Part shown: piece by piece, positions 9,269 to 56,900 of the stretch
Numbering within the stretch: position 1 is the first letter of the stretch
Layout: every line of letters starts with the position of its first letter
Assembly (NCBI GenBank): GCA_038087875.1
Contig: CM075990.1
Span: forward strand, 17,858,001-17,922,000
Source of the DNA: Malacoraja senta
Taxonomy: Eukaryota
Direction: 5' to 3'
Length of the DNA stretch: 64,000 nucleotides
Translations under genes and position numbers: made by a program
The notes under the pieces: model-generated
Databases searched by the model: none
What the model saw: only the letters and a program-made list of their open reading frames with translations
What the model was told of the DNA's origin: nothing

Positions 9269-9375
9269 TTTGATTAATATTTTTATTAGAAGCAAACATA
9301 CTATAAAGTATAGTAACATATTATAATAGAAAAAAAAACTTTTCATATACATCAATCATACATTATTAAAATTGT

Positions 9376-11914
9376 CAAACAGGAAATTAGAAATGCGTGC
9401 AACAAAGGCAAAACAGTTATAATGGGTGACTTCAATCTACATATAGATTGGGTAAATCAAATTGGCAGGGGTGCTGAGGAAGAGGATTTCTTGGAATGTA
9501 TGCGGGATAGTTATCTAACCCAACATGTAGAGGAACCAACGAGAGAGCAGGCTATTCTAGACTGGGTATTGAGTAATGAGGAAGGGTTAGTTAGCAGTCT
9601 TGTTGTGCGTGCCCCCTTGGGCAAGAGTGACCATAATATGGTTGAGTTCTTCATTAGGATGGAGAGTGACATTGTTAATTCAGAAACAACGGTTCTGAAC
9701 TTAAAGAAAGGTAACATTGAGGGTATGAGACGTGAATTGGCCAAGATTGACTGGCAATTAGTTCTAAAAGGGTTGACGGTGGATATGCAATGGAAGGCAT
9801 TTAAAGACTGCATGGATGAACTACAAAAGTTGTTAATCCCAGTTTGGCAAAAGAATAAATCAGGGAAGGTAGAGCATCCGTGGATAACAAGGGAAATCAG
9901 GGATAGTATCAAAGCAAAAGATGATGCGTACAAATTAGCCAGAAAAAGCAGCATACCAGAGGATTGGGAGAAATTCAGAGACCAGCAGAGGAGGACAAAG
10001 GGCTTAATTAGGAAAGGGAAAATAGATTATGAAAGGAAACTGGCAGGGAACATAAAAACTGACTGCAAAAGTTTTTATAGATATGTGAAGAGAAAGAGAT
10101 TAGTTAAAACAAATGTAGGTCCCTTGCAGTCAGAAACGGGTGAATTGATCATGGGGAACAAGGATATGGCGGACCAATTGAATAACTACTTTGGTTCCGT
10201 CTTCACTAAGGAAGATATAAATAATCTGCCGGAAATAGCAGGGGGCCGCGGGTCAAAGGAGATGGAGGAACTGAGTGAAATCCAGGTTAGTCGGGAAGTG
10301 GTGTTGGGTAAATTGAATGGATTAAAGGCCGATAAATCACCAGGGCCAGATAGGCTGCTTCCCAGAGTACTTAAGGAAGTAGCTCCAGAAATAGTGGATG
10401 CATTAGTGATAATTTTTCAAAACTCTTTAGATTCTGGAGTAGTTCCTGAGGATTGGAGGGTAGCAAACGTAACCCCACTTTTTAAGAAGGGAGGGAGAGA
10501 GAAAACGGGGAATTACAGACCAGTTAGTCCAACATCGGTAGTGGGGAAACTGCTAGAGTCACTTATTAAAGATGGGATAGCAGCACATTTGGAAAGTGGT
10601 GAAATCATTGGACAAAGTCAGCATGGATTTACGAAAGGTAAATCATGTCTGACGAATCTTATAGAATTTTTCGAGGATGTAACTAGTAGAGTGGATAGGG
10701 GAGAACCAGTGGATGTGTTGTATCTGGACTTTCAGAAGGCTTTTGACAAGGTACCACATAAGAGATTAGTATACAAACTGAAAGCACATGGTATTGGGGG
10801 TTCAGTATTGATGTGGATAGAGAACTGGCTGACAAACAGGAAGCAAAGAGTAGGAGTAAACGGGTCCTTTTCACAATGGCAGGCAGTGACTAGTGGGGTA
10901 CCGCAAGGCTCAGTGCTGGGACCCCAGCTATTTACAATTTATATTAATGATCTGGATGAGGGAATTGAAGGCAACATCTCCAAGTTTGCGGATGACACTA
11001 AGCTGGGGGGCAGTGTTAGCTGTGAGGAGGATGCTAGGAGACTGCAAGGTGACTTGGATAGGCTGGGTGAGTGGGCAAATGTTTGGCAGATGCAGTATAA
11101 TGTGGATAAATGTGAGGTTATCCACTTTGGTGGCAAAAACAGGAAAGCAGCCTATTATCTAAATGATGGCTGATTAGGAAATGGGGAGATGCAGCGAGAC
11201 CTGGGTGTCATGGTACACCAGTCATTGAAAGTAGGCATGCAGGTGCAGCAGGCAGTGAAGAAAGCGAATGGTATGTTGGCCTTCATAGCAAGAGGATTTG
11301 AGTATAGGAGCAGGGAGGTTCTACTGCAGTTGTACAGGGTCTTGGTGAGACCACACCTGGAGTATTGCGTACAGTTTTGGTCTCCAAATCTGAGGAAGGA
11401 CATTATAGCCATAGAGGGAGTGCAGAGAAGGTTCACCAGACTGATCCCTGGGATGTCAGGACTTTCATATGAAGAAAGACTGGATAGACTTGGCTTATAC
11501 TCGCTAGAATTTAGGAGATTGAGAGGGGATCTTATAGAAACGTACAAAATTCTTATGGGGTTGGACAGGCTAGATGCAGGAAGATTGTTCCCGATGTTGG
11601 GGAAGTCCAGGACAAGGGGTCACAGCTTAAGGATAAGGGGGAAATCCTTTAAGACCGAGATGAGGAAAAACTTTTTCACACAGAGAGTGGTGAATCTCTG
11701 GAACTCTCTGCCACAGAGGGTAGTTGAGGCCAGTTCATTGGCTATATTTAAGAGGGAGTTAGATGTGGCCCTTGTGGCTAATGGGATCAGGGGGTATGGA
11801 GAGAAGGCAGGTACGGGATACTGTGTTGGATGATCAGCCATGATCATATTGAATGGCGGTGCAGGCTCGAAGGGCCGAATGGCCTACTCCTGCACCTATT
11901 TTCTATGTATCTAT
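9376..11914 (+). mobile_element. CR1 lineage B, 5'-truncated, one premature stop (TGA 11171-11173)
   Basis: GDFN, SDH, LDFQKAFDKV, GVPQGSVLGP, FADDTKL; near-identical to ~43750-46290; ttctatgt tail. Confidence 0.95.
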
Positions 11915-12928
11915 CTATGATACGCTTTTGCAATCCATTTTGTTTTTAATCTATGTTGTGCTTCCTTTTTAAGATGTGTTTCCTGGAGAAATATTATATC
12001 TGCTTTAAGTAATTTTAAATGAGCTAATACTTTACCTCTCTTGATTGGTTCATTAATTCCCTTAACATTCCAACTACAGAATTTAATTCCTTCACCCCCA
12101 ATTTTCCTATTAACGTCTTGCATCTTGTGATTAAAGTGGTCTATGTTAGAGCAGATGGCTCAGCACACCAAACCCCACCTTATACCCAAACATCAGGTAG
12201 ATGAATTTTAGGTCCCGTCGGTTTACCATCCGGACATATCTCCCTAAATAAAATATATAATTCCATTCCAAATACAAAATATAATATAACATAAGATAAA
12301 AAAGATAAAAAGAAGTTGCATTAATAACGTGTAAAGAGTAGAAAAATAAGAAAACTACAACTATGGTTAGTGCAGTTAGTGATAGCCACCCTAGTGTGGC
12401 TAAGCATCTAAGGACTTCCGTAGCTTTTGGTAAATAAAAAGATATTACTCGCTCCGTACTTTCCTTAAAAGGAAAGTTTCAATTACAATGAAAACAATTT
12501 ATGGGGGGGAGGGAAACAATAGTTATATTCCATAATTGAAATAATTATTAGTCTCAAATTAAAATGTTAGTTGCCAAAATTTTTAAAAAAAAACATTGTT
12601 AAAGAGTAAAATCAAAAATATCAAAGAAAAAACGTCCTAAATTTTTATTAAATTACCTGAATCACACTATACTTATATTTCATACTATTAATTAATTTAG
12701 AGTTGATCCAGTTAACAATAATTAGTATTGATTAGTATTCATAATTAGTAATAGTTGTTAGAAATTAGTACTAAAATGTAAATATTATATATCAGTAGCA
12801 ATCTAATTGCCCAATTCTTATTGCAGATTTTGGACAGTTCTTAAGTATAATAGTTTAAAGTTCCATTTCTTCTCTGCAGGGTAACAATGTCCGATATCTT
12901 CAGGTGAATGTTGGGTGTAGGGTATTAT

Positions 12929-13957: not shown

Positions 13958-15819
13958 GCTGCCGGTGTCGCGCGCCTGATGACGTCACGAACTTACTGCA
14001 AACAATCGGTGCCGTTTACTGCAGGTAGGTCCCGTCTTTTTCCCCCGTTTTCAGCGTTTTTTTCACGGAGCTAGTCGGCGCGAGTCTCTCTTACTCCATA
14101 GCGCCACCGGAAGTGATATATATTATCTCTAAGTATCCTTTCCATTAATTTGCCCACAACTGACGTCAAACTAACAGGTCTATAATGGCTAGGTTTATTC
14201 TTAGAACCCTTTTTAAACAACGGAACAACATGCGCAGTACGCCAATCCTCCGGCACTATTCCCGTTTCTAATGACATTTGAAATATTTCTGTCATAGCCC
14301 CTGCTATTTCTACACTAACTTCCCTCAATGTCCTCGGGAATATCCTGTCAGGACCTGGAGACTTATCCGTTTTCATATTTTTCAAAAGTGTCCGCACCTC
14401 CTCTTCTTTGAATCTCATAGTTTCCATTGCTACTCTGCTTGTTTCCCTTACCTCACATAATTCCATATCCTTCTCCTTGGTGAATACTGAAGAAAAGAAA
14501 TTGTTCAATATCTCCCCCATCTCTTTTGGCTCTGCAGATAGCTGTCCACTCTGACTCTCTAATGGACCAATTTTATTCCTTGTTATCCTTTTGCTATTAA
14601 TATAGCTGTAGAAACCCTTTGGATTTACTTTCACCTTACTTGCCAAAGCAACCTCATATCTTCTTTTAGCTTTTCTAATTTCTTTCTTAATATTCTTTTT
14701 ACATTCTTTATACTCCTCAAGCACCTCATTTACTCCATGCTGCCTATAATTATTGTAGATCTCTCTCTTTTTCCGAACCAAGTGTCCAATTTCCCTTGAA
14801 AACCATGGCTCTTTCCAATTTTTACTATTTCCTTTCAACCGAACAGGGACATAAAGATTCTGTACTCTTAAAATTTCACCTTTAAATGTCCTCCATTTCT
14901 CTTCTACATCCTTCCCATAAAACAACATGTCCCAATTCACTCCTTTTAAATCCTTTCGCATCTCCTCAAAGTTAGCCTTTCTCCAATCAAAAATCTCAAC
15001 CCTAGTTCCAGTTCTGACCCTCTCCATAATTATATTGAAACTAATGGTATTGTGATCACTGGACCCGAAGTGCTCCCCAACGCTTACCTCCGCCACCTGC
15101 CCCGTCTCATTTCCTAACAGGAGGTCCAGCACTGCCCCTTCTCTAGTAGGTACCTCTATGTATTGCTGCAAAAAACTATCCTGCACACATTTTACAAATT
15201 CCAAACCATCCAGCCCTTTTACAGAATGTGTTTCCCAGTCTATGTGTGGAAAATTGAAATCTCCCACAATCACTACCTTGTGCTTACTATTAATCTCTGC
15301 TATCTCCTTACATATTTGCTCTTCCAATTCTCGCTCCCCATTTGGCGGTCTATAATACACCCCTAAGTGTTGCTACACCTTTCCCATTTCTCAGCTCCAC
15401 CAGAATAGCCTCCCTAGACGAGCCCTCTAATCTATCCTGCCAAAGCACTGCTGTAATATCTTCCTTGACAAGCAATGCAACACCCCCACCTCTTGCCCCT
15501 CCAAATCTATCACCCCTGAAGCAACAAAATCCTGGAATATTTAGTTTCCAATCACAGCCCTCCTGCAACCATGTTTCACTGATCGCCACAACATCATACT
15601 TCCAGGTGTCAATCCAGACTCTAAGCTCAACCACCTTTCTTACAATGCTCCTAGCATTAAAATATACACATTTAAGAAACCCACCACCACTTATTCTCTG
15701 TTTATTATCTTTTTCTTCTTTCTCCCCTACATTTTGGGTCCGAGTGCTTCCCTTCTCTGCCTCCTGCCTCCCACATTTTCTACTATCTTTCTCTATTTGA
15801 GTCCCTCCCCCCAACCGTT

Positions 15820-16755
15820 CTAGTTTAAAGTCTCCCCAGTAGCCTTTGCAAATCTCCCTGCCAGGATATTGGTTCCCCTCGGGTTCAAGTGCAACCCGTC
15901 CTTTCTGTACAGGTCACACCTTCCCCAAAAGAGGTCCCAATGATCAAGAAATTTGAATCCCTGCCCGCTGCACCAGTTCCTCAGCCACGCATTTATCCTC
16001 CACCTCATTTCATTCCTACTCTCACTGTCGCGTGGCACAGGTAGTAATCCTGAGATTGTTACCTTTGCGGACCTTCTCCTTAACTCTCCTCCCAACTCCC
16101 TAAATTCTCCTTTCAGGACCTCTTCTCTTTTTCTGCCTATGTCATTGGTACCTATATGTACCACAACCTCAGGCTCCTCTCCCTCCGATTTCAGGATATC
16201 TTGGACGCGTTCAGACACATCCCTGACCCTGGCACCAGGGAGGCAAACTACCATCCGGGTCTCCTGACTGCGTCCACAGAATCGCCTATCCGACCCCCTA
16301 ACCATAGAGTCCCCTATTACTATTGCCCTCCTCTTCTTTTCCCTACCCTTCTGGGCAATAGGGCCGGTCTCTGTGCCGGAGGCCCGGCCACTGTCGCTAC
16401 CCCCAGGAAGGCTGTCCCCCCCAACAGTACTCAAACAGGAGTACTTATTTTCAAGGTGTACAGCCACCGGGCTACTCACTAGTCCCTGCCTCTGCCCCTT
16501 GCCCTTCCTAACCGTGACCCACTTGTCTGCCTCCCGTGGTCTTGGAGTGGCCACCTCCCTATAACTCCTTTCTATGACCTCCTCACTCTCCCTGATCAGA
16601 CAGAGGTCATCGAGCTGCTGCTCCAGGTTCCTAACACGGTCCCTTAGGAACCCCATCTCTACGCACCTGACACAGATGTGGACGTCTGGAGGGGTATCAG
16701 ACTCCATGACCTCCCACATCTGACATCCAGAACAGTAAACTGCCCTGGCCCTCAT
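15820..16755 (-). CDS. CR1 ORF1p: zinc finger/leucine zipper plus SGNH (GDSL) esterase, intact 311 aa
   Basis: CSGC..CVRC, zipper, IGDSMVRG, PGA, HIGTNDIG, DGLHLN esterase blocks. Confidence 0.88.
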   Translation of the reverse strand: MRARAVYCSGCQMWEVMESDTPPDVHICVRCVEMGFLRDRVRNLEQQLDDLCLIRESEEVIERSYREVATPRPREADKWVTVRKGKGQRQGLVSSPVAVHLENKYSCLSTVGGDSLPGGSDSGRASGTETGPIAQKGREKKRRAIVIGDSMVRGSDRRFCGRSQETRMVVCLPGARVRDVSERVQDILKSEGEEPEVVVHIGTNDIGRKREEVLKGEFRELGGELRRRSAKVTISGLLPVPRDSESRNEMRWRINAWLRNWCSGQGFKFLDHWDLFWGRCDLYRKDGLHLNPRGTNILAGRFAKATGETLN

Positions 16756-42010: not shown

Positions 42011-45000
42011 TCTATATATTTAAAAGTCTAATCTTGACCACTTCCTGTCTGCATATTGATTTTAGAAAAAACGCTACCCTGTATTGCTGTGATTTTTGGC
42101 CATCTTACTCACAGTCCTCCTCCGCTGAGCCAACCCCGAAGATTTTTCCCATAGATGAAAAATAAAAAAGTTATGAGTGTTTAAATAAACCTTGAGATCC
42201 GCTGATTGGTCCTCTCGCCTGTCAATCACCGCGATGAAGGTAACGCCCCTTCCGGAGCGGGGGGGGGGTAGGGGGGGGGGGGGGTAGGACTATAAAACCC
42301 CGGATGCCTGGACGCGAGTCAGTCACTCTGCAAGATTGCGAGGGAGAGGCCACGACTGTCATTCTAAGCTGTGGAACAACTGACTGTCATTCTAAGCTGT
42401 GAATCAACAATGTACTTGCAATCAATGATGTTAGCCCTTAATGACGATGCCATGAGTTGTTTGGCCTGCTACCCTGCCTGTGCTTGAAAGTGCAATGCTT
42501 AATTGGAAATGAAATGAAATGAAATGACAATGCCATGAGTTGTTTGGCCTGCTGCCCTGCCTGTGCTTGAAACTGCAATGCTTTATTAGGTCTGACTGTG
42601 TTTGGAAGGAATAAATGCTTTATTAGATCCGACTGTGTTTGGAAGGAATAAATGCTTTATTAGGTCCGACTGTGTTTAGTCCAAAAGTCCTGGTCATTTT
42701 GTGACTTTTGTTTAGTGGACAGGTCGCGATGATTGCATAATTTCCGGTGAGTGCAGAGGTCGCGCTGATTGCGTAATTTCCAGTAAGTGCAGAGATCACG
42801 CTGATTGCGGAAGTGCCGCCGACTGCGGAAGCCCCATAGTGGAGAGGCCGCGCTCAGCCATGTGAGTAGATTCAAGAAAGTTTACTGTCATATATATGGT
42901 GTGTGAGTGTGTGTGTATGTGTGTGTGAGTGTGAGTGTATGTGTGTGTGTGAGTGTATGTGTGAGTGTATGTCTTTTGTGGAAGGTTCGACCTGTACAAA
43001 AAGGATGGGTTGCACTTGAACCTGAGGGGGACCGATATCCTGGCGGGGAGATCTGCAAAGGCTACTGGGGAGACTTTAAACTAGAATGGTTGGGGGGAGG
43101 GACTCAAATAGAGAATGCTATTAGACAGTGTGTGAGGCAGGAGGCAGAGAAGGAAAGCACTCAGACCCAACATGTAGGGGGGAAAGAAGAAAACAATAAT
43201 AAACAGAGAATAAGAGGTGGTGGGGTTCTTAAATGGGTGAGCAGAGAAACAGAGGGGTGTAAAATGCGGGCGGAAGCAATAGGTAGCAAGGTGAAAGGTA
43301 AAAGTGGCAGGCAGACAAATCCAGGGCAAAAATCAAAAAGAGCCACTTTTCAACATAATTGTATAAGGGGTAAGAGCGTTGTAAAAACAAGCCTGAAGGC
43401 TTTGTGTCTCAATGCAAGGAGCATTCGTAATAAGGTGGATGAGTTGAACGTGCAGATAGCAATTAATGATTATGATATAGTTGGGATCACGGAGACATGG
43501 CTCCAAGGTGACCAAGGCTGGGAGCTGAACATCCAGGGATATTCAATATTCAGGAGGGATAGAGAGAAAGGAAAAGGAGGTGGGGTGGCGTTGCTGGTTA
43601 GAGAGGAGATTAACGCAGTGGAAAGGAAGGACATTAGCTTGGAGGATGTGGAATCGGTATGGGTAGAGCTGCGAAACACTAAGGGGCAGAAAACGCTGGT
43701 GGGCGTTGTGTACAGGCCACCTAGCAGTAGTAGTGAAGTTGGGGATGGCATCAAACAGGAAATTAGAAATGCGTGCAACAAAGGCAAAACAGTTATAATG
43801 GGTGACTTCAATCTACATATAGATTGGGTGAATCAAATTGGCAGGGGTGCTGAGGAAGAGGATTTCTTGGAATGTATGAGGGATAGTTATCTAAACCAAC
43901 ATGTAGAGGAACCAACGAGAGAGCAGGCTATTCTAGACTGGGTATTGAGTAATGAGGAAGGGTTAGTTAGCAGACTTGTTGTGCGTGCCCCCTTGGGCAA
44001 GAGTGATCATAATATGGTTGAGTTCTTCATTAGGATGGAGAGTGACATTGTTAATTCAGAAACAACGGTTCTGAACTTAAAGAAAGGTAACTTTGAGGGT
44101 ATGAGACGTGAATTGGCCAAGATTGACTGGCAATTAGTTCTAAAAGGGTTGACGGTGGATATGCAATGGAAGGCATTTAAAGACTGCATGGATGAACTAC
44201 AAAAATTGTTCATCCCAGTTTGGCAAAAGAATAAATCAAGGAAGGTAGTGCATCCGTGGATAACAAGGGAAATCAGGGATAGTATCAAAGCAAAAGATGA
44301 TGCGTACAAATTAGCCAGAAAAAGCAGCATACCAGAGGACTGGGAGAAATTCAGAGACCAGCAGAGGAGGACAAAGGGCTTAATTAGGAAAGGGAAAATA
44401 GATTATGAAAGGAAACTGGCAGGGAACATAAAAACTGACTGCAAAAGTTTTTATAGATATGTGAAGAGAAAGAGATTAGTTAAATCAAATGTAGGTCCCT
44501 TGCAGTCAGAAACAGGTGAATTGATCATGGGGAACAAGGATATGGCAGACCAATTGAATAACTACTTTGGTTCCGTCTTCACTAAGGAAGACATAAATAA
44601 TCTGCCGGAAATAGCAGGGGGCCGCGGGTCAAAGGAGATGGAGGAACTGAGTGAAATCCAGGTTAGTCGGGAAGTGGTGTTGGGTAAATTGAATGGATTA
44701 AAGGCCGATAAATCACCAGGGCCAGATAGGCTGCATCCCAGAGTACTTAAGGAAGTAGCTCCAGAAATAGTGGATGCATTAGTGATAATTTTTCAAAACT
44801 CTTTAGATTCTGGAGTAGTTCCTGAGGATTGGAGGGTAGCAAACGTAACCCCACTTTTTAAGAAGGGAGGGAGAGAGAAAACGGGGAATTACAGACCAGT
44901 TAGTCTAACATCGGTAGTGGGGAAACTGCTAGAGTCAGTTATTAAAGATGGGATAGCAGCACATTTGGAAAGTGGTGAAATCATTGGACAAAGTCAGCAT

Positions 45001-53900: not shown

Positions 53901-56900
53901 AGGGGGAGGATCCAGTGGTCGTGGTCCATGTGGGGACCAATGACATAGGAAGGACGAGGAAGGAGGATCTGCTGAAGGAGTTTGAGCAGTTAGGGAATAA
54001 ATTAAAAAGCAGAACCTCGAGGGTACTGATCTCCGGATTGCTACCTGAGCCACGGGCCAAATCGGCGAGGGTACGTAAAATTAAAAAGCTGAATGCGTGG
54101 CTCAAAGACTGGTGTGGGAAAAATGGGTTTGGTTTCTTGGGCCACTGGCACCAGTACTGGGACAGGGGGGATCTGTTCTGTAAGGACGGACTTCACCTGA
54201 ACGGTGCTGGGACTGGGGTCCTGGCAAATCATATAACTAGGGCAGTAGAGAGGTCTTTAAACTAAGTAGCGGGGGGGAGGTATCAAGGGGGGTAATAACG
54301 GCAGGGGTAGAGGAAATAGAGCAGGGTATCAGTGGGGAAACGGAAAATCAAAATGTGACAGGAGGATCCAGAATGTGTGAAGATAAAGCTCTAGATGTAA
54401 AAGGGGCAAAAACAGAAAGGAAGGGTAGTAAAAATCATCTGAAAGTGCTGTATCTAAATGCACGGAGTATTCAAAATAAGATAAATGAATTAACGGTGCA
54501 ATTAAGTATATATAGTTATGATATCGTGGCCATTACGGAGACATGGCTGCAAGGGGATCAGGATTGGGAGTTAAATATAGAGGGGTACTCGACAATTAGA
54601 AAAGATAGACAGGAAAGAAAGGGAGGAGGGGTGGCCCTTTTAATAAGGGAGGGAATAACGGCAATAGAGAGGAAGGATATTGCGTTGAAAGATCAGGATA
54701 GTGAAACAGCTTGGGTACAGATAGAGAATAACAAGGGGAAAAAAACACTAGTGGGTGTAATTTATAGACCTCCAAATAGCTGTGACGCTGTTAGTCAGAA
54801 CATAAATCTGCAAATAGTTGACGCATGTAAAAAGGGAACTGCTGTAATCATGGGGGACTTCAATTTTCATATTAATTGGGCAAACCAAACTGGGCAGGGT
54901 AGACTAGAGGAAGAGTTTATAGAATGTATTAGAGACGGGTTCCTAGAACAGTATGTCACAGAACCGACAAGGGGGGAGGCAATCTTGGATCTGGTCCTGT
55001 GTAATGAAGCAGGATTAATTAAAAATGTCATAGTTAGGGACTCGTTGGGAACAAGTGACCACAATATGGTCGAATTTCATATTCAAATAGAAGGGGAGCA
55101 GGTTGAAACTCAGGCTAGGGTACTTAGTCTAAATAAGGGGGATTATGAAGGTATGAGGACTGAGCTGATCAAAGTTGACTGGGATAGCAGACTCAAGAAT
55201 AAGACGGTACATGAGCAGTGGTGTACGTTTAAGGATCTACTGTATAACCTTCAAGAAAAATTTATTCCTATGAAGAAAAAAAGGGGTAAGGGAAAGAACA
55301 GTCAGCCATGGCTCAGTAAAACTATAAAGGATAGTATTCGGCTGAAGGCAAGGGCATATAAGGTAGCCAGAGATAGTGGGAGGGTAGAGGATTGGGAAGC
55401 ATTTAAAGGTCAGCAAAAAATAACTAAGAGATTAATTAAGACGGGGAAAATAGACTATGAAAGGAATTTAGCGAACAACATAAAAACTAATAGTAAGAGT
55501 TTTTATAGCTATATAAAAAGAAAAAGGGTGGCTAAGGTGAACGTTGGTCCATTGGAGGGTGAGACTGGAGAGTTGTTGGTGGGGAACATGGAAATGGCAA
55601 AGGCATTAAACGAGTATTTTGTATCAGTCTTCACCATAGAAGACACAAAAAATATTCCAACGCTGGATAAACAGGGGGCGGTAGGAATGGAGGAGCTAAA
55701 TACTATTAAGATCACCAAGGTGGTATTAGGGAAATTAATGAGACTGAAGGAGGATAAATCCCCTGGGCCTGATGGATTACATCCAAGGGTCTTGAGGGAG
55801 ATAGCGGTGGGGATTGTGGATGCATTGGTGATAATTTTCCAAAACTCCCTGGAGGCAGGAACGGTCCCAGTGGATTGGAAAATGGCCAATGTAACACCTA
55901 TATTTAAAAAAGGAAGTAAACAGAAGGCGGGTAACTATAGACCGGTTAGTCTAACATCGGTGGTGGGTAAAATGTTAGAGACAATTATTAAAGAAACACT
56001 AACGGGGCACTTGGATAAACATGACTTCATCGGACAGAACCAGCATGGTTTTGTGAAGGGGAAGTCCTGTTTGACGAATCTGCTCGAATTCTTTGAGGAA
56101 GTAACAACCCGGGTGGATAAAGGGGAACCGGTGGATGTGGTATACTTGGACTTCCAAAAGGCTTTTGACAAGGTGCCACATAAGAGACTATTGCTAAAAA
56201 TAAAAAATTATGGGATTGGGGGTAATATATTAGCATGGGTAGAGGATTGGCTAACAAATAGGAAGCAGAGAGTGGGGATAAATGGTTCATACTCGGGATG
56301 GCAACCGGTAACTAGCGGGGTTCCGCAAGGGTCGGTGCTGGGACCCCAGTTGTTCACAATTTATATAAATGATTTGGAGGAGGGAACCAAGTGTAATATA
56401 TCAAAATTTGCGGACGATACAAAAATGGGAGGAAAAGTAGGGGATGAGGAGGATAGGAAGAGTCTGCAAAAGGATATAGATAAGCTAGGTGAGTGGGCAA
56501 CAACTTGGCAGATGAAATTTAATACTAATAAATGTGAAGTCATTCACTTTGGGAAAAAAAATGATAGGGCAAGTTATTTTCTAAATGAGGTGGAGCTGCG
56601 TTGTAATGCAACGCAAAGGCATCTAGGGGTAGTAGTACATGAATCACTAAAAGTTAGTATGCAGGTGCAGCAAGCAATCAGGAAGGCCAATGGAGTTTTG
56701 GCCTTTATTGCTAGGGGGATTGAGTATAAAAACACGGAGGTCTTGCTGCAGCTGTACACAGTATTAGTGAGACCACATTTGGAATACTGTGTACAGTTCT
56801 GGGGTCCATACTTAAGAAAGGATGTACTGGCCCTGGAGGCAGTGCAGCGAAGGTTTACAAGATTAATTCCTGCAATGAGGGGATTGACATATGAGGAAAG

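Follow-up and report, generated by a model that had tools for sequence, protein, structure and literature searches.

A putative −1 frameshift signal linking the esterase ORF1 and the endonuclease–reverse transcriptase ORF2 of CR1 LINEs

The CR1 LINEs compared here probably make their endonuclease–reverse transcriptase (RT) as an ORF1–ORF2 fusion through programmed −1 ribosomal frameshifting, a reading drawn from the comparison of their ORF1–ORF2 junctions. Most ribosomes would stop at the end of ORF1 and release ORF1p, while a minority would slip from UUA AAC to UUU AAA and resume at CUA, yielding the predicted junction peptide ...ETLN-LERLGGG.... Stop codon and downstream G-run together would make the ribosome pause, probably via a bound protein and not via RNA structure, and the slip rate would set the ORF1p:ORF2p ratio, as with Gag and Gag-Pol. 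Such a gag-pol-like fusion had been proposed in an initial annotation of the DNA analyzed here, and our comparisons support it; the slip itself is what we infer.

The CR1 copies of the window

The window is a stretch of 64,000 nucleotides from Malacoraja senta (assembly GCA_038087875.1, contig CM075990.1). Its three CR1 ORF1 copies (15829, minus strand; 43075 and 54256, plus strand) all end in the heptamer TTTAAAC. By count, the window shows no excess of the 10-mer formed by heptamer and stop codon (8 matches when one mismatch is allowed, against 7.4 expected); what departs from chance is its placement at the ends of all three ORF1 copies, not its count.

ORF1 of the minus-strand copy (15820–16755, 311 aa plus stop) comprises an N-terminal CX2C-X16-CX2C motif, a coiled-coil-like stretch and an SGNH/GDSL esterase (Pfam Lipase_GDSL_2, E = 1e-14), and ends in ...GETLN. 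A profile of its relatives matched the solved LINE ORF1 esterase 4C1B (E = 1.5e-43), and its nearest named relatives in a protein search are skate and ray proteins (best 87%). A single-sequence search with ORF2 against solved structures returned no match. The APE endonuclease was recognized on this copy (Pfam Exo_endo_phos) and the RT on another copy of the window, 41% identical to it (RVT_1); in longer copies, the RT motif lies ~2100–2280 nt past the ORF1 stop. CR1 elements end in short TTCTATG-type repeats in place of poly(A), and a tail of this type was found 3050–3300 nt past the stop in 5 of the 8 long loci examined, the window copy itself being truncated. With its zinc finger, zipper and esterase, the element is a CR1-clade LINE carrying an esterase ORF1 of type IVB, one of the types described in PMC4120745. 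Relationships were drawn from a tree among the fetched loci, and bird-type loci were recognized by ORF1 tails that match named bird proteins.

Re-reading the sequence confirmed the junction as first annotated. The last codons of ORF1 are ACT TTA AAC TAG, so that minus-strand TTTAAAC (15829–15823) stands as U_UUA_AAC in the X_XXY_YYZ register directly before the stop codon TAG (15820–15822). From the heptamer, the −1 frame reads FKLERLGGG... and stays open through a linker of 57 codons (15659–15829, minus strand), AUG-free in frame, to the endonuclease start NARS at 15658. The annotated G tract, GGTTGGGGGGAGGG (15816–15803, minus strand), does exist, but its conserved part starts 10 nt past the heptamer, not ~6 nt; in this copy, it is the run G6-A-G3 (15803–15812, minus strand), a candidate 3′ stimulator.

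The first part of the ORF2 endonuclease (15350–15658, minus strand) hits a stop, the result of 2 nt lost near 15363. This deletion is private to the window copy: reads from relatives have two extra bases behind 15363. The second part of the endonuclease and the start of the pre-RT region (14116–15372, minus strand) follow in their own frame, with the first Met past the SDH motif, and near 14115 another element truncates ORF2. With these two lesions, the copy is dead. The other two junctions, both on the plus strand, belong to further subfamilies: the linker of the second (43075–43084, heptamer and TAG) spans 329 nt and holds an AUG at codon 64, and that of the third (54256–54265, heptamer and TAA) spans 194 nt and holds one at codon 40.

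Several neighboring features were recorded. The element that interrupts ORF2 runs from ~14115 down to 12000 on the minus strand and includes a coiled-coil-rich ORF (13984–13325) that is broken by a stop and continues to 12929; Pfam assigned this ORF no specific family, and from its motifs we take it to resemble an L1-type ORF1. On the plus strand, 9317–11915 holds a 5′-truncated CR1 ORF2 that includes an RT domain, is interrupted by one stop and ends in a tail of the TTCTATG type. Immediately upstream of the ORF1 start, a 24-nt unit is repeated in tandem about three times (16840–16765, minus strand). Among protein records, CR1 ORF1 sequence also occurs in P0022, P0031, P0060 and P0251, which either bear the name of a Pseudomonas hydrolase or join it to host genes (those for ribosomal protein S24 and TMEM204) and may represent contamination, annotation artefact or exonisation.

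Conservation of the heptamer, the frame and the G-run

We searched the genome with a pattern that fixes the catalytic DGxHL and accepts any Leu/Phe-Asn-stop codons 57 nt on. Exact TTTAAAC was present in 8532 of the 8856 matching ORF1 ends, a proportion that is not in itself evidence of selection because most copies are neutral; no large subfamily of this genome departs from the heptamer. The corresponding pattern for non-Asn catalytic motifs gave mostly chance matches.

Across lineages, ORF1 ends were found by protein profile, independently of the heptamer, in the genome and in 45 metagenome loci, 15 of which had a usable junction. The 139 ends (124 from the genome itself, some elements being fetched twice) formed 26 clusters. 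Three were dropped: one was an L2-type element, and the other two were copies that have an indel shortly before the ORF1 end but still show the heptamer a few bases further along. Of the 23 retained, three each consist of a single element fetched twice. The terminal Leu codon is UUA in 22 of the 23 clusters and the terminal Asn codon AAC in all of them, against 11% UUA and 44% AAC in the same ORF1s. The base preceding UUA is U in 22 clusters, under nine different amino acids, where the third-base T baseline is 23%. The stop codon is free to vary (TAG in 12 clusters, TAA in 8, TGA in 3), and a control Leu after the catalytic His uses six codons, with TTA in 1 of 17. One old copy departs from the heptamer with TCTAAAC and the distant locus L151 with G_UUA_AAC, the latter listed as the equine arteritis virus form in the PMC5009743 review. 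The clusters thus share what frameshifting calls for, an X_XXY_YYZ heptamer in the upstream frame with conserved silent sites.

The start of the endonuclease could be located in 13 clusters, the other 10 of the 23 being degraded or short. In 12 of these 13 (in cluster 6, in one of two copies), the −1 frame leads from the heptamer into ORF2, and the ten modal or second-mode linker lengths are 110, 125, 143, 152, 164, 191, 194, 197, 245 and 329 nt. Conservation of heptamer and −1 register across lineages, on which the initial annotation had staked its proposal, is therefore borne out. The sole register exception is cluster 3, a single element with a G13 run and ORF2 in frame 0. In several clusters, the −1 frame is closed by a stop 0–5 codons upstream of the heptamer, so entry must occur at the heptamer or later. 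Within one subfamily, the G-run lacks a base in 7 of 35 loci, which leaves the endonuclease off-register; several very similar copies of one subfamily (L061–L068) show this shorter G-run with ORF2 off the −1 register. Off-register loci (7 of 35) are most simply read as homopolymer indels, arising by error or by slippage at insertion.

A run of at least four G starts 5–14 nt past the heptamer in 19 of the 23 clusters (background 6%), with G at +11, +12 and +13 in 20, 21 and 22 clusters, respectively, placing the core after a 10-nt spacer. The 80 nt past the junction gave fold z-scores of −1.5 to +1.9 relative to shuffles, with no stable RNA structure 5–9 nt downstream and no local hairpin or pseudoknot in the 23 clusters. 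This counts against frameshifting, as a slippery heptamer on its own usually shifts poorly. Nor did the G-run have a shared long-range partner, the best duplexes in 9 long loci falling at unrelated places. Fold prediction places a G-quadruplex in 5 of the 23 clusters, including the subfamily of the window copy; it was rejected as a general stimulator because several clusters have only one long G-run. The stimulator suggested in the initial annotation thus holds as a conserved G-run, but not, in general, as a pseudoknot or G-quadruplex.

More distant relatives were compared at the protein level. Three protein searches yielded 319 proteins, 232 of them with a catalytic D-x-x-H 20–45 residues from the end, and 102 remained after removal of near-duplicates. 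The C-terminal tripeptide could be encoded by a canonical heptamer at the very end in 61 of the 102 and one residue earlier in 20, against 0–10 at other offsets. LN, GN, KN or GF lies near the end of ORF1 in 73 of the 102 tails (shuffles: mean 12.7, maximum 22), the remaining 29 having none of the four endings. In 72 of these 73, the preceding residue permits the base (U, G, A and G) required by U_UUA_AAC, G_GGA_AAC, A_AAA_AAC or G_GGU_UUU, respectively, a fit at the level of protein. Label permutation gave a mean of 16.8 misfits (P = 1e-5), although such P-values for switching overstate the case, because the data had been seen before the four classes were picked and the lineages are related. 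At other places in these proteins, 76 of 297 occurrences of the dipeptides are misfits. With duplicates kept, the fit is 125/127 for LN, 34/34 for GN, 14/14 for KN and 13/13 for GF, and 23 of the 34 GN tails are preceded by Gln, which cannot end in U. A test of the residue preceding LN taken by itself was not significant (2/30 against 40/270 misfits, P = 0.28).

PMC5009743 counts all four heptamers among those most prone to shifting. Nearly all LN and GN tails have the stop immediately after the putative heptamer; in the KN families, ORF1 continues for 10–11 codons beyond the predicted site. The GN, KN and GF families are known from their proteins: scans of viral contigs for their DNA found no relative, a genome scan gave seven weak loci, none with such a junction, and a search for longer, fused proteins returned none. 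One record, P0334, is a natural copy of a distant LN family in which the esterase runs through FKL..GG into NARS with no Met between. Judged from these tails, distant relatives appear to swap the heptamer for other slippery sequences.

Other tails and junctions were seen. Thirteen esterase tails have FF near the end (P0099, P0133, P0194, P0271 and others), often after Glu, Gln or Met, and do not fit a canonical U_UUU_UUZ site; a few other tails end in SN or EN. These FF, SN and EN tails are possibly non-canonical slip sites. At ~2500–3000 of L218, a contig filed in a bacterial MAG and probably animal DNA in a bacterial bin, a single in-frame TAG separates esterase-like and APE-like ORFs, a possible stop read-through junction or one-off mutation.

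Start codons and other readings of the junction

A conserved junction could also arise if ORF1 needed a Leu-Asn C-terminus and the shared ancestry of the elements preserved it, the frame of ORF2 being a by-product. LN does end 59 of the 65 homologous ORF1 tails of normal length, and the terminal Asn is invariant in alignment A1. Protein constraint, however, leaves silent positions free, and here they are fixed while those of the catalytic-motif residues vary, by which this reading is largely refuted. Moreover, identity between the ORF2s of the main heptamer-bearing groups, bird-type loci included, is only ~30–39% (ignoring the row of L011, where an internal frame error upset the alignment), and the ORF1 ends are GN, KN or GF in distant families and different again in L2-type esterases; we regard constraint on the protein as a very improbable cause. 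Equally improbable in our estimation is a signal for DNA or RNA processing that would place ORF2 on its own message. TTTAAAC-TAG looks like a branch point with an acceptor, and TTTAAA with a G-rich box looks like a core promoter, a resemblance that speaks for this proposal. A splice acceptor is disfavored because 11 of the 23 clusters have TAA or TGA and hence no AG. RNA reads of a related species (2647, 2716 and 25330 aligned reads from three runs) run across the junction uninterrupted; no joint exceeds 5 reads, and read starts do not pile up at the junction, a weak argument because passive transcription may account for much of this RNA. A look-up of RNA datasets containing the exact stretch itself listed none, which speaks in neither direction. 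On the stops without AG and the unbroken coverage, both the splice acceptor and the internal promoter were rejected; a separate ORF2 message would, in any case, still need a start codon.

The alternative that retains some probability, though we consider it unlikely, is termination followed by reinitiation at or just past the ORF1 stop, through an AUG in the linker or without one, with heptamer and G-run serving as the reinitiation signal. Reinitiation has been reported for SART1 (PMC10275272), AUG-independent initiation is favored for the mammalian LINE ORF2 (PMC5009743), and the stop adjoins the heptamer in nearly all LN and GN tails, as noted above. Start codons bear on it in both directions. 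The initial annotation had described ORF2 as lacking an AUG before the SDH motif; this holds for the window copy, read as two pieces each in its own frame, and for its subfamily, but not for other families. In the subfamily, 24 of 25 distinct copies are AUG-free before the endonuclease motif, and the first Met lies past SDH in 7 of the 9 copies open that far. These copies break at different places and therefore share no lesion, and the AUG of the sister subfamily lies within 55 codons that the subfamily has lost in-frame. An AUG before the endonuclease motif is also absent in L159, L160 and L162, the last of which additionally lacks CUG, GUG, UUG and ACG. By contrast, 12 of 17 open representatives carry an in-frame linker AUG, the first AUG standing at codon 5 in 3 of the 17, at codons 20–64 in 9 and nowhere in 5; in three bird-type loci (L153–L155), it is at codon 5, directly past the stop. 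Absence of an AUG is thus a property of the subfamily and not a general one, so reinitiation may operate in some families; nor is a missing AUG proof, because initiation of the mammalian LINE ORF2 is believed not to depend on its AUG (PMC5009743).

Against reinitiation, the 17 representatives share no start codon, AUG or near-cognate, and have no conserved AUG overlapping or just past the ORF1 stop. Such an AUG does occur in the L2-type esterase LINEs L185 and L195, where it overlaps the stop (AUGACUGA) and the heptamer is absent, a junction of the reinitiation type. Reinitiation also leaves unexplained why the seven upstream bases take the X_XXY_YYZ form and switch only among such forms, why ORF1 of the KN families extends beyond the site, and why, in families with a later AUG, the −1 frame stays open for the 19 to 63 codons between the heptamer and the first AUG (in representatives chosen for being open). 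Shuffle probabilities of linker openness, calculated on copies selected as open, were set aside as a test. Silent sites and start codons together indicate that neither a Leu-Asn codon constraint nor a conserved ORF2 AUG, both foreseen in the initial annotation, explains the motif, and −1 frameshifting is the reading we favor.

Significance and relation to known systems

We found no report of CR1 frameshifting in the literature searched; primary CR1 descriptions, supplements and Repbase or Dfam notes may contain an earlier remark. In the portions available, the PMC5009743 frameshifting review does not mention CR1 and ascribes LINE ORF2 to an unknown kind of initiation, and PMC4120745, on esterase ORF1 types, does not mention frameshifting. 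Provisionally, then, frameshifting is a known mechanism, and what is new is its proposed use by CR1 LINEs, the apparent switching of heptamers and the unstructured G-run. In bird genomes, CR1 is the principal repeat (PMC11835228), and close to 9,000 CR1 ORF1 ends occur in the present genome. If frameshifting is true of CR1, its enzyme would be tethered to ORF1p, which would change models of particle assembly; the start-less ORF2s in CR1 annotation would be accounted for, the building of a working CR1 assay would be guided, and a short signal that seems to work without RNA structure would be at hand. On a wider and tentative view, somewhat doubtful as it stands, a whole animal LINE branch, from cartilaginous fish to birds and beyond, may make a Gag-Pol-like esterase–endonuclease–RT fusion using a structure-free signal composed of any of the four most slippery heptamers, a stop and a protein-read G-run 10 nt on. 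No other frameshift signal in vertebrate genomes would then be as widespread, and the stimulator would belong to a new class.

Among LINEs, SART1, mammalian L1 and the L2-type esterase elements have a bicistronic message like that of CR1, and the L2-type elements share its esterase ORF1 (4C1B match; PMC4120745); they differ in having an AUG at or past the stop and separate proteins. Coronavirus IBV uses U_UUA_AAC as its −1 frameshift site (PMC5009743), and CR1 has it in the same register, with a structural ORF that would be fused to a −1 polymerase ORF, as in retroviral gag-pol. Unlike these viral sites, CR1 has no pseudoknot or hairpin 5–9 nt downstream and is a cellular non-LTR element in which the slip is deduced. 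In the arterivirus PRRSV, CCCANCUCC lies 11 nt 3′ of the frameshifting site, with nsp1-beta and poly(C)-binding protein binding to it (PMC5009743). The CR1 signal resembles it as a short, unstructured, homopolymer-rich motif at a nearly equal distance (spacer of 10 nt), but is G-rich and not C-rich, and a protein reader for CR1 is suggested by this analogy. The Dictyostelium APE-type non-LTR elements TRE5-A and TRE3-A, whose ORF2 is said to require −1 frameshifting (PMC5911963), belong to another lineage and carry another ORF1, yet by description they are like CR1 in being non-LTR elements with ORF2 (APE, RT) in the −1 frame.
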